Shown here: in pieces, positions 1,020 to 2,104 of the stretch
Position numbering within the stretch: position 1 is the stretch's first letter
How the letters are laid out: each line of letters begins with the position of its first letter
Assembly: GCA_016189025.1 (NCBI GenBank)
Contig: JACPGS010000027.1
Span: forward strand, 22,506 to 86,505
DNA from: Candidatus Magasanikiibacteriota bacterium
GTDB lineage: Bacteria > Patescibacteriota > Patescibacteriia > Magasanikbacterales > GWA2-37-8
DNA length: 64,000 nucleotides
Direction: 5' to 3'
Made by a program: the position numbers and the translations under genes
The notes under the pieces: generated by a model
Databases searched by the model: none
What the model saw: only the letters and a program-made list of their open reading frames with translations
Told to the model about the DNA's origin: nothing

Positions 1020-1766
1020 ATGGATCAGCCAGTATTGGGGATTCGTCTTGATTTAGTAAATCGCGCCGCGGCGCTTGCCCAGGCCCGCATGTTTTTAAAC
1101 CAGCCCGGTCAATACCGGATTTATACTCCTAACCCGGAGATGATAGTCTTGGCGCAACAAGATGAGCAATTTCGGGAGGTGCTTAATCGCGGCGATCTTA
1201 ATCTTTGCGACGGGGTGGGGCTCTATTGGGCCGCGCGGTTTCAGGGGGTCAGAGGCTTACAGCGCATCACTGGTACGGATTTTATGCTTGATCTTTGCCG
1301 GTTGGCAGCCGAGCAGGGGAGAGGGATATATTTGTTAGGATCGGGGAGTAGGGAAGTAGTTTCCCGCACTGCCGGACGTCTGCAGCAAATGTTTGCCAAT
1401 CTGCGTATGGTTGGTTTTAATCCGGGTCCGGCGGTGGATGCCAAAGGAGAGGTGGCGGAAGCGGAAGCGCGTATTTTAATAAATGAGATTAAGCAAAAGC
1501 AGCCGGAGATTCTTTTGGTGGCGTTCGGCATGGGCAAGCAGGAGAAGTGGATTGACCGCAATCTGGGTGCGTTACCCAGTGTTAAAATTGCCATGGGAGT
1601 AGGCGGGGCGTTTGATTATTTAGGGGGGCGGGTAGGGCGCGCCCCTGGACTTTTGCGTAAATTAGGGCTAGAATGGCTGTACCGCTTAATTCGCGAGCCC
1701 TGGCGAGCCAGGCGCATTTTTAATGCCACGGCGAGGTTTGTGTATTTGTATATTAAAAGAAGTTAG
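1020..1766 (+). CDS. WecB/TagA/CpsF-family glycosyltransferase
   Basis: 248-aa ORF. The NLCDGVGL...YWAARF region and overall length are typical of the WecB/TagA/CpsF family (established family knowledge). Confidence 0.7.
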   Translation: MDQPVLGIRLDLVNRAAALAQARMFLNQPGQYRIYTPNPEMIVLAQQDEQFREVLNRGDLNLCDGVGLYWAARFQGVRGLQRITGTDFMLDLCRLAAEQGRGIYLLGSGSREVVSRTAGRLQQMFANLRMVGFNPGPAVDAKGEVAEAEARILINEIKQKQPEILLVAFGMGKQEKWIDRNLGALPSVKIAMGVGGAFDYLGGRVGRAPGLLRKLGLEWLYRLIREPWRARRIFNATARFVYLYIKRS

Positions 1767-2104
1767 CGGAAATAATGAATTCACTTTTACCAATTGACCG
1801 TTCAAAATTATTCTGGTAATTTACTTACCTTATTCATTACCCATAACATTATGACTAAACATGAGCCATGGTCGGACTGGATGTCAGAAGCAGACGCAGC
1901 TCGTATGTATGAACTAAGCGTGTTCATTACACAAGCTGTAACAGATAAGGGCATCTCAATAGACAATGTGCGAAAAGCGCAGGCCGAGATGGATACAATA
2001 TCTAAAAAATATCCGGAAATGATAGAACTTGGAGAAAAACGCAAAAGAAGATAAATTACCAGAATAATTTTGAACGAAAAGTGAATTCATTACATCCGCT
2101 AACA
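1762..2104. repeat. Pair of roughly 52-62 bp imperfect inverted repeats (GTTAGCGGAAATAATGAATTCACTTTT...TTCAAAATTATTCTGGTAATTTA and its reverse complement) enclosing an AT-rich segment of about 230 bp
   Basis: The left arm spans 1762-1823 and the right arm 2052-2104. The arms differ only by a 10-bp indel (ACCAATTGAC) and 2-3 substitutions. The left arm overlaps the stop codon of the upstream glycosyltransferase. Confidence 0.75.
1851..2054 (+). CDS. Small hypothetical protein (67 aa from MTKHEPWSDW...) encoded entirely between the long inverted repeats
   Basis: The ORF lies inside the AT-rich inverted-repeat-bounded segment and has no recognisable family. The ORF-track version starts earlier at 1794; the later ATG was chosen here. 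Confidence 0.3.
   Translation: MTKHEPWSDWMSEADAARMYELSVFITQAVTDKGISIDNVRKAQAEMDTISKKYPEMIELGEKRKRR

Follow-up and report, generated by a model that had tools for sequence, protein, structure and literature searches.

Features of the wecG-gltX interval

A pair of long inverted-repeat arms downstream of wecG, a gene of the WecG/TagA/CpsF family, was analyzed in 64 kb of contig JACPGS010000027.1 from a Candidatus Magasanikiibacteriota bacterium, a member of the candidate phyla radiation (CPR; Patescibacteria). The whole 64-kb stretch is called the window, and L001 to L029 are labels for comparison contigs or loci. On the plus strand, wecG (1020-1766) is followed by the 5' arm (1762-1823), an open reading frame (ORF) for 67 amino acids (aa) (1851-2054), the 3' arm (2052-2103), a site resembling integron attC sites (2104-2233), and a pepE-like Peptidase_S51 gene (2264-2887). 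The segment 2234-2259 in front of pepE holds a core, GTTAAGTAA, and a further 5' arm, and the segment 2888-2918 behind it is the remnant of a 3' arm (...GAATAAAATTTACA). The units beginning at 1762 and 2234 are referred to as cassette 1 and cassette 2, with the 67-aa ORF and pepE as their respective cargo.

A repeat search of the window matched the two arms of cassette 1 at 50 of 52 positions. The outer module (1762-1788 and 2077-2103) is 27 nt long and matched at 25 positions (93% complementary), while the inner module (1799-1823 and 2052-2076) is matched at 25/25 (100%). No gap separates the modules in the right arm. The left arm alone has 10 inserted nucleotides between them, ACCAATTGAC (1789-1798), and this insert gives rise to TTGACC at 1794-1799. 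The 5' arm is thereby composed of the R' core GTTAGCGGA (1762-1770), the mismatched dinucleotide AA (1771-1772), a 16-nt extension (1773-1788), the insert, and the 25-nt inner module. The 3' arm has the inner module, followed by the extension (2077-2092) and the mismatched dinucleotide CA (2093-2094); it closes with the R'' core TCCGCTAAC (2095-2103), whose reverse complement is exactly GTTAGCGGA. Read in the same direction, the arms are GTTAGCGGA-AA-TAATGAATTCACTTTT and GTTAGCGGA-TG-TAATGAATTCACTTTT, followed by the inner module ending TGGTAATTTA. A first-pass annotation had described near-identical arms of about 52 bp, the left one overlapping the stop codon of a glycosyltransferase gene, around an AT-rich interior encoding a 67-aa protein of unassigned function. 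This description holds, with the 10-nt insert of the left arm added to it.

The arms are unique to the locus in the collections searched. Neither arm half occurs elsewhere in the window with up to 3 mismatches (matches were likewise seen in 0/100 shuffles), and no match to the arms was found in 185,579 species-representative genomes and viral contigs. A scan of JGI (Joint Genome Institute) metagenomes returned a lone 22-mer in an unrelated AT-rich coding region (L008), which was discarded as a chance match. Logan assemblies of two different runs contain the identical sequence, in the orientation seen in the window (L001 covers 865-2130, and L002 covers 889-1849). The repeat is not an assembly artefact, because these two run-independent assemblies are identical and the arms differ from each other by an indel and 2 mismatches. 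The Logan contigs of the source sample are broken within the terminal hairpin of the attC-like site, where L001 ends at 2130 and L025 starts at 2194; similar sites elsewhere in the source sample would fit such a break, though they are not proven by it.

The 67-aa protein is an orphan predicted to be helical. Its sole database match is itself, a hypothetical protein from a Candidatus Magasanikbacteria metagenome-assembled genome (MAG). Nothing matched it in Pfam and PHROG, and its single-sequence AlphaFold model (pLDDT, the predicted local distance difference test, 72; helical) gave no significant fold match. The last codon and the stop codon of wecG span the junction AAGAAG|TTAGCGG, so that cassette 1 provides the final base of the last codon and the stop codon TAG (1764-1766). 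The C-terminus of the wecG product ends within 1-2 residues of the ends of its homologues. The sequences flanking the arms, AAGAA and AGCAC, contain no target-site duplication.

The closest wecG homologues are 55-57% identical, and their neighbourhoods are syntenic, with the conserved order clpB (minus), [uppS], wecG, gltX, M23 peptidase, and ddl. In five of these relatives (L003-L007), wecG and gltX are separated by 6 nt, a 79-aa ORF, or a 177-aa ORF, and neither pepE, the 67-aa cassette, nor the tRNA gene of the window is found at this locus. The window keeps the same flanks, with 1.47 kb between wecG and gltX. Judged by gene order, the locus is an insertion into conserved synteny. The G+C content of 1762-2995 is 38.7% (36-41% along the stretch), compared with 51.2% for the window, and the 500-nt segment of lowest G+C content in all 64 kb starts at 2001. 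The earlier suggestion of a compositionally distinct islet is therefore supported both by low G+C content and by an insertion unmatched in the five syntenic relatives.

The attC-like site

The site at 2104-2233 contains the stem arm L'' CGATATGCG (2108-2116), a terminal hairpin (2116-2169) that looks like a bidirectional terminator, the stem arm L' CGCATATCG (2220-2228), and the spacer GCAAC. L'' and L' form a 9-bp stem, and the next core, GTTAAGTAA at 2234, follows directly and opens the pepE cassette. These features agree with the published form of attC, which has R'' and R' boxes, antiparallel R''-L'' and L'-R' cores, a spacer that stays unpaired, and a terminal structure that varies, with R' as the place of crossover (PMC2727003). 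The window has inverted cores (...CGCTAAC at 2097-2103 and GTTAAGT at 2234-2240), and the pairing of L'' with L' is conserved as structure. Crossover at R' agrees with the match of each cassette start to the cassette's own end, which is 9/9 in the window and 8-9/9 in 14 other cassettes, the 9-mer itself being the pairing criterion. The distance from R'' to R' is 144 nt in the window and 79-199 nt in relatives, with shorter sites in L029; the attC length criterion is 57-142 nt with an unpaired central spacer.

Junctions in relatives share the plan TC-NNNN-AAC | A, 10-nt L'', GG(T/C)T..., variable hairpin, ...CTTC, 10-nt L', NAC | GTT-NNNN-GA-AAT. Sixteen distinct sites in relatives all have TC-NNNN-AAC, a 10-bp L stem, NAC, and GTT-NNNN-GA; these sites were chosen for stem complementarity, and AAC and GTT were also demanded by the search. 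Independent evidence comes from the conservation of the flanks, which was not demanded, from the diversity of the stems, and from the placement of the sites. L'' and L' are complementary while their sequence varies by site (CGGCGTATGC/GCATACGCCG, ATGAATATGC/GCATATTCAT, GCGTATATCT/AGATATACGC), and at least 9 different complementary stem sequences are present. Every site is on the coding strand of its array and is placed strictly after ORFs. Profile hidden Markov models (HMMs) of the half-sites, built from relatives only, have their best window matches at 2098-2120 (E 0.53, weak alone) and 2215-2245 (E 0.0015), and nothing better than E ~1 was found in the rest of the 64 kb.

Complementary ends within each cassette

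Reverse-complementing the first 9 nt of a cassette (GTT-NNNN-GA) gives the last 9 nt of that same cassette (TC-NNNN-AAC) and not those of its neighbour. The complementarity continues after a 2-nt mismatch with 12-16 further matches that are specific to each cassette. In 13 of 15 cassettes, the mismatch sets AA of the 5' arm against TG of the reverse-complemented 3' arm. When positions 12-27 were compared across the same 15 cassettes, 13.1 of 16 positions agreed with the opposite end of the same cassette and 6.2 of 16 with the ends of other cassettes. In an alignment of 12 cassettes, 90% of cells pair and compensatory change is seen in 20 of 25 pairs, a level reached by 0/500 shuffles and approached by no slid register.

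The own-end repeats span 22-75 nt across the 15 cassettes examined. Bipartite repeats of 50-75 nt, in which a second inner module follows an indel, are present in several cassettes of relatives (for example, L022 125-598, L022 1494-2316, L015 9173-9906, and L015 4254-7997). The inner module of the first of these, TTTGGTAATTTA, resembles the left-arm end TGGTAATTTA of the window. The left ends of different cassettes have the consensus GTT-NNNN-GAAAT in common. Some 10 kinds of cargo are carried by the 15 repeat-flanked cassettes, with the ORFs invariably pointing to the attC-like site downstream.

When the circle junction is reconstructed by joining the 3' end and site to the 5' arm, it folds into one hairpin (-70.7 kcal/mol, z = -16), compared with the integrated state, in which folding is confined to the L stem and the terminal hairpin (-25.5 kcal/mol). 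It is concluded from these comparisons that the inverted repeat is most likely the outer part of the recombination site of the cassette, split in two by integration.

Mobility of pepE

The pepE cassette opens at 2234 with GTTAAGTAAAATAAATTTTATT. The DNA of 2232-2918 aligns with the pepE copies of relatives, whose homology stops at 2918 (...AAATTTACA), and the 3' arm remnant has neither the R'' core nor a terminal attC-like site. An alignment of the sequence behind pepE to L013, in search of a decayed attC, scored no higher than shuffled controls, and no claim is made past 2918. The 7-mer GTTAGCG, with which cassette 1 opens (1762-1768), is also present at 2922-2928, just past the truncated arm; it could be the original target core, a mark of a duplicated target, or a chance occurrence.

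Cassette-borne pepE copies in other CPR contigs share 71-87% identity with that of the window, compared with at most 57% for the core gene wecG. Homologues with taxon names mostly bear Patescibacteria or Parcubacteria labels. The pepE genes are found in varied contexts, with six different neighbours upstream and five different surroundings downstream, and a search of species genomes with pepE returned one locus only. The segment 2090-2176, upstream of pepE in the window, is 82% identical over 87 nt to a segment downstream of pepE in L009-L012, and a multiple alignment suggests that the similarity runs on to ~2245. Sites of this family are also found behind other cargoes. Because of this permuted position relative to pepE, the intergenic segment is probably a repeated junction element rather than local sequence. 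From identity, context, and permutation, pepE is judged to be a mobile gene.

A lone pepE with only an L'-R' half-site is present in L026, a Patescibacteria MAG, which indicates that stranded cassettes recur. A pepE cassette 83% identical to that of the window, with a site of the same family, was also found in a 2.8-kb contig binned as 'Methanobacteriaceae archaeon' (L013/L014, JAUYBK010000214.1). This is either a mis-binned CPR contig or a case of cassette sharing across domains.

Arrays and recombinases in relatives

In L018, a gene for a 278-aa tyrosine recombinase on the minus strand adjoins and diverges from an array of pepE, GIY-YIG, 75-aa, DpnI, 63-aa, and RhuM genes, all on the plus strand. 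The same genes are present in L015-L017, with additional 180-aa and 210-aa genes before pepE. L015 has its own 280-aa recombinase, and the first cassette copy is 75 nt from that gene. From the exact GTT of the pepE cassette (L018 2241, L015 9971), L018 and L015 are 99.9% identical over 3.7 kb, while upstream of this GTT the two contigs are unrelated. The two recombinases share 39% identity. L015 and L020 have pepE, L'', and the terminal hairpin in common and diverge at L'/R', a pattern indicating that the site travels with the upstream ORF, as attC does. Crossover at R'', by which the site would move with the downstream gene, was considered and rejected on the same pattern, since L015 and L020 keep pepE together with L'' and the hairpin.

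A 287-nt cassette without an ORF occurs three times in L015 (3676-4262 and 8082-8381) at 98-99% identity, as a tandem pair beside the recombinase gene and as one copy 4.1 kb away between other cassettes. A large array lies at 430-11760 of L029, which is part of a 697-kb Patescibacteria contig (JGI 3300037810); within 12 kb it has no fewer than 17 left and 12 right half-sites, and all of them share one strand. Many L029 sites have a short form of ~50 nt with an apparent bulged G in L'. The 20 kb of L029 that were covered contain no recombinase gene.

The enzymes of L015 and L018 score 247 and 201 bits, respectively, with the NCBIfam XerA/integron-integrase model (cut-off 220). For both, this model and the integron-integrase model TIGR02249 outscore the XerC and XerD models. 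The housekeeping Xer genes of L003 and of the window (13370-14341) show the opposite pattern, with higher XerC/XerD scores. Among solved structures, the array recombinases match the integron integrase of Vibrio cholerae best (2a3v, E 2e-49).

The sequence just before the insertion in the window, TTTGTATATTAAAAGAAG|TT, resembles the attI-like sequences TTTCGTATACAAACCA|GTT of L018 and CTTCGCTTATAGGTA|GTT of L015. On account of this resemblance, the sequence upstream of the GTT at the wecG end may have acted as a secondary site.

A model of cassette exchange and its alternatives

Taken together, the arms are probably the two ends of one mobile cassette that belongs to an integron-like, site-specific recombination system of CPR bacteria. 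The window is best read as a stranded remnant of an array of two cassettes, the 67-aa ORF followed by pepE, because the terminal site after pepE has been lost and no cognate recombinase is present within 64 kb. Cassette 1 is complete (1762-2233). The earlier idea of a small mobile cassette is retained in this model with a different mechanism: its ends would consist of the R boxes of an integron-type cassette together with an extension, rather than of transposon terminal repeats.

A cassette of this kind would start with GTT-NNNN-GA, carry one cargo gene, and end with TC-NNNN-AAC, followed by an attC-like hairpin site (the L'' stem arm, a variable terminal hairpin, the L' stem arm, and a 3-nt spacer) abutting the next GTT. 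An IntI-related tyrosine recombinase would exchange strands at the GTT of two sites, as the homology breakpoints suggest. Upon excision, the 3' end of the cassette with its site would be joined to its own 5' end, and the arms would pair in the circle or in single-stranded DNA to form one long hairpin. For the window, this hairpin would run from a stem of 25 bp through a 10-nt bulge and a further 16 bp to the 2-nt mismatch, and from there through the 9-bp R box and the L box to the terminal hairpin. The predicted excision junction is ...AAAAGAAG|TTAAGTAAAAT..., with the scar TATTAAAAGAAG|TTAAGTAAAATAAATT, and the predicted circle junction is ...ATCGGCAACG|TTAGCGGAAAT..., that is, CATATCGGCAACG|TTAGCGGAAATAATG. 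The two cassettes of the window would sit at the GTT that overlaps the stop codon of wecG.

The junctions may also contribute to transcription. A promoter scan found a sigma-70-like match at 2218-2245, composed of TTCGCA (2218-2223, overlapping L'), 16 nt, and TAAAAT in the 5' arm; both boxes lie within the family consensus. The conserved AA of the 5' arm falls in this -10-like hexamer, and TG is at the equivalent place in the 3' arm. In the left arm of cassette 1, TTGACC, 17 nt, and TGgTAATTT can be read directly; this -10 is weak and was not called by the scan. TTGAC is present at the equivalent spot of L015 (8373), again in the 5' arm only. Speculatively, the asymmetry of the arms, with the AA/TG mismatch and a TTGAC box confined to the 5' arm, may provide a promoter in the 5' arm only, allow the recombinase to recognize the strand, or both, and the terminator-like terminal hairpin may insulate cassettes from each other's transcription.

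Several observations weigh against the integron-like model. The scores of the L015 and L018 enzymes with TIGR02249, 245 and 198 bits, are under its cut-off of 265. The alignment of the recombinases to the V. cholerae enzyme VchIntIA is split, and residues 184-241, which span the IntI additional domain, correspond to 15 residues; this domain is a defining feature of integron integrases (PMC9668308; PMC4792948). A complete integron, with an adjacent intI that includes the additional domain, is present neither in the window nor in the relatives. Canonical integron chemistry cannot be assumed for recombinases that are without this domain and below the cut-off. Within the 64-kb window there is no IntI-like gene or invertase, and the sole tyrosine recombinase is of the XerD/C type, 11 kb away. 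The window has a single intact attC-like site (2095-2242), and the site expected after pepE is missing, while the IntegronFinder 2 default for a cluster of attC sites lacking an integron integrase (CALIN) is at least 2 clustered attC sites without intI (PMC9024848). The spacer is asymmetric (1 nt vs 3-4 nt) with the extra unpaired bases on the L'-R' side, whereas canonical attC has its extrahelical bases on the R''-L'' arm (PMC2727003). The pairing percentage of the relatives' sites is circular, because stem complementarity was the selection criterion, and only positions 10-27 of the own-end repeat are independent, because the 9-nt R-box match served to pair the ends. For HMM-found sites of L029, an ungapped stem check gave 6.3 of 10 for own and 5.6 of 10 for non-own arms, with no separation; by eye, the shorter sites appear to carry a bulged base, which makes the ungapped check uninformative. 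All statements on recombination are drawn from comparison of metagenome contigs.

Among the alternatives, the arms could function in RNA. On a read-through transcript from wecG they would pair into a stem of ~50 bp round the ORF, leading to RNase III processing, translational control, or insulation. The predicted fold of 1740-2180 is indeed dominated by the arm-arm stem (-138 kcal/mol, z = -9), and the arms overlap start or stop codons in some cassettes (L015 10819-11660). However, the promoter-like element of the left arm, though weak in its -10 and uncalled by the scan, would start a transcript downstream of that arm, and the GTT/AAC cores, the homology breakpoints at GTT, and the linkage to recombinases are left unexplained. 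Such a role is unlikely as the explanation of the repeat, and it could coexist with the cassette model.

Quite unlikely is a non-autonomous element with terminal inverted repeats, such as a miniature inverted-repeat transposable element (MITE) or mobile insertion cassette, moved by a transposase in trans with the hairpin spacers as preferred targets. Inverted repeats around passenger genes with no transposase inside, and the consensus GTT-NNNN-GAAAT at the left ends of different cassettes, would be expected of it. Neither the target duplication nor the multi-copy repeats of such elements are seen: the flanks are AAGAA | ... | AGCAC, and the arms are single-copy in the window and, except for the chance 22-mer, absent from the searched collections. 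Moreover, the arm sequences are cassette-specific and co-varying rather than one conserved transposase-binding repeat, the downstream hairpin site stays with its upstream cargo across contexts, and the sole enzyme recurring at the heads of arrays is a tyrosine recombinase, not a transposase.

The first-pass annotation had also proposed an inverton or phase switch. In a switch of this kind, a recombinase would flip the 228-bp segment between the arms and toggle the 67-aa ORF relative to an outside promoter. Long, nearly perfect inverted repeats containing tyrosine-recombinase-type cores in inverted orientation are what such a switch would use, but the consensus assemblies of both runs have a single orientation, no invertase or IntI-like gene is near, and the only tyrosine recombinase in the 64 kb is the distant XerD/C-type one. 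The promoter-like element lies within the left arm, not outside, and the same repeat architecture flanks all 15 cassettes, including a 3.7-kb ABC transporter unit, with the cargo always directed toward the attC-like site. Inversion is thus a very unlikely explanation.

Least likely of all, and barely credible, is a genomic island put into a tRNA gene by a phage-type integrase, as in the proposed tRNA-anchored islet: the 3' end of the tRNA gene at 3035-3107 faces the low-G+C stretch, but this gene is missing at the syntenic locus of the five relatives rather than kept at empty sites, no direct repeat of its 3' end was found near 1762 or elsewhere nearby, no integrase adjoins, and the homology with mobile relatives stops at 2918, ~115 nt short of it. 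None of these four readings jointly explains the GTT/AAC cores, the GTT breakpoints, the co-varying sites, and the recombinase linkage.

Neighbouring features

The tRNA gene (3035-3107, minus strand) is outside the cassette array, and it is not a conserved anchor, since it is absent from the syntenic locus in relatives. ARAGORN called it tRNA-Ser(UGA), yet it is 73 nt long without a long variable arm. In an Infernal alignment, a 2-nt insertion leads to an atypical 9-nt anticodon loop, CAUUGACAC, and a G3:U70 pair is seen by eye in the acceptor stem. An Rfam scan of 700-3400 found the tRNA only.

An 18-nt inverted repeat (735-752 and 909-926, 94% complementary) surrounds a GC-rich segment of 156 nt in the clpB-wecG intergenic region, upstream of clpB. 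It has no Rfam match and could be a structured leader or an operator. An 80-nt 'tRNA-Asp(atc)' called by ARAGORN at 45473-45552 lies inside an ORF (45159-45710, minus), folds as a GC-rich set of hairpins, and is probably a false positive. A second low-G+C island (60900-63940) encodes TspO, a protein with Schlafen/AlbA_2 and HATPase_c_4 domains, and an Eco57I-type N6 DNA methylase, and looks like a defence or restriction-modification islet.

Comparison with known systems

Integrons, whose integrase evolved from Xer-type recombinases, are the classic bacterial gene-capture platform. The CPR cassettes resemble integron cassettes in having one or few ORFs per unit and an imperfect palindromic site with ...AAC/GTT... 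outer cores, L stems, unpaired spacers, and a variable terminus. The 5' end of a cassette complements its own R'' core, and homology breaks at the GTT of R'. An array keeps to a single strand, and at its head lies a divergent IntI-related tyrosine recombinase with an attI-like site. As in chromosomal integrons, the sites within one array resemble each other, and isolated remnants are found in core genome regions. Unlike integrons, the hosts are CPR bacteria, and the recombinase is without the IntI additional domain of ~40 aa and below the curated IntI cut-off. Beyond the R box, pairing in the CPR sites goes on for 13-65 nt within the cassette, interrupted by a conserved 2-nt mismatch, and results in a long flanking inverted repeat; extra unpaired bases are on the L'-R' arm. 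The CPR junctions are promoter-like, so the cassettes may not need a common promoter.

The Xer/dif modules (pdif) of Acinetobacter plasmids are similarly bounded by inversely oriented tyrosine-recombinase cores, and one array recombinase passes the NCBIfam XerA/integron-integrase model. The bottom-strand R''-L'' half, CCGCATAC-GCCGTG-TTATGTGATGT, resembles E. coli dif, which we take to be GGTGCGCATAA-TGTATA-TTATGTTAAAT; this is a lead, not a test. Where Xer/dif modules share one 28-bp duplex site, each CPR junction has two half-sites that fold into a hairpin whose loop varies. The spacer of the L'-R' half is 9 nt rather than 6 nt, and the arrays have a recombinase of their own, separate from the housekeeping XerC/D-type gene. 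Transposase-free passenger genes between inverted repeats are shared with mobile insertion cassettes and MITEs, but there is no target duplication, the arms are single-copy and cassette-specific, and the linkage is to a recombinase, not a transposase. With invertons, a short segment between inverted repeats is shared; the single orientation seen, the lack of a nearby invertase, and a repeat common to cassettes with a fixed direction of cargo are different.

No report of integrons or attC arrays in CPR/Patescibacteria was found in open-access full texts and bioRxiv, where only resistome surveys name both separately. The papers on archaeal integrons (PMC9668308) and IntegronFinder 2 (PMC9024848) do not mention Patescibacteria. 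In scanning such genomes, a long inverted repeat round a single small gene that starts with GTT-NNNN-GAAAT would indicate the ends of a cassette, not an inverton. If functional, the system would be a route of gene exchange among CPR lineages, in which pepE reaches 87% identity between contigs whose core genes share no more than 57%, and a natural experiment on which features of integrons are essential.

Tentatively, and with slightly less than even confidence, a distinct and widespread gene-capture system of CPR bacteria is proposed. Its recombinase would be the closest kin of IntI but lack the additional domain, its sites would reach far into the cassettes to give flanking repeats of 22-75 nt, and its junctions would possibly combine promoter and terminator. 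It could be an intermediate between Xer/dif and integrons or a parallel invention, and the window would represent one stranded cassette of it.

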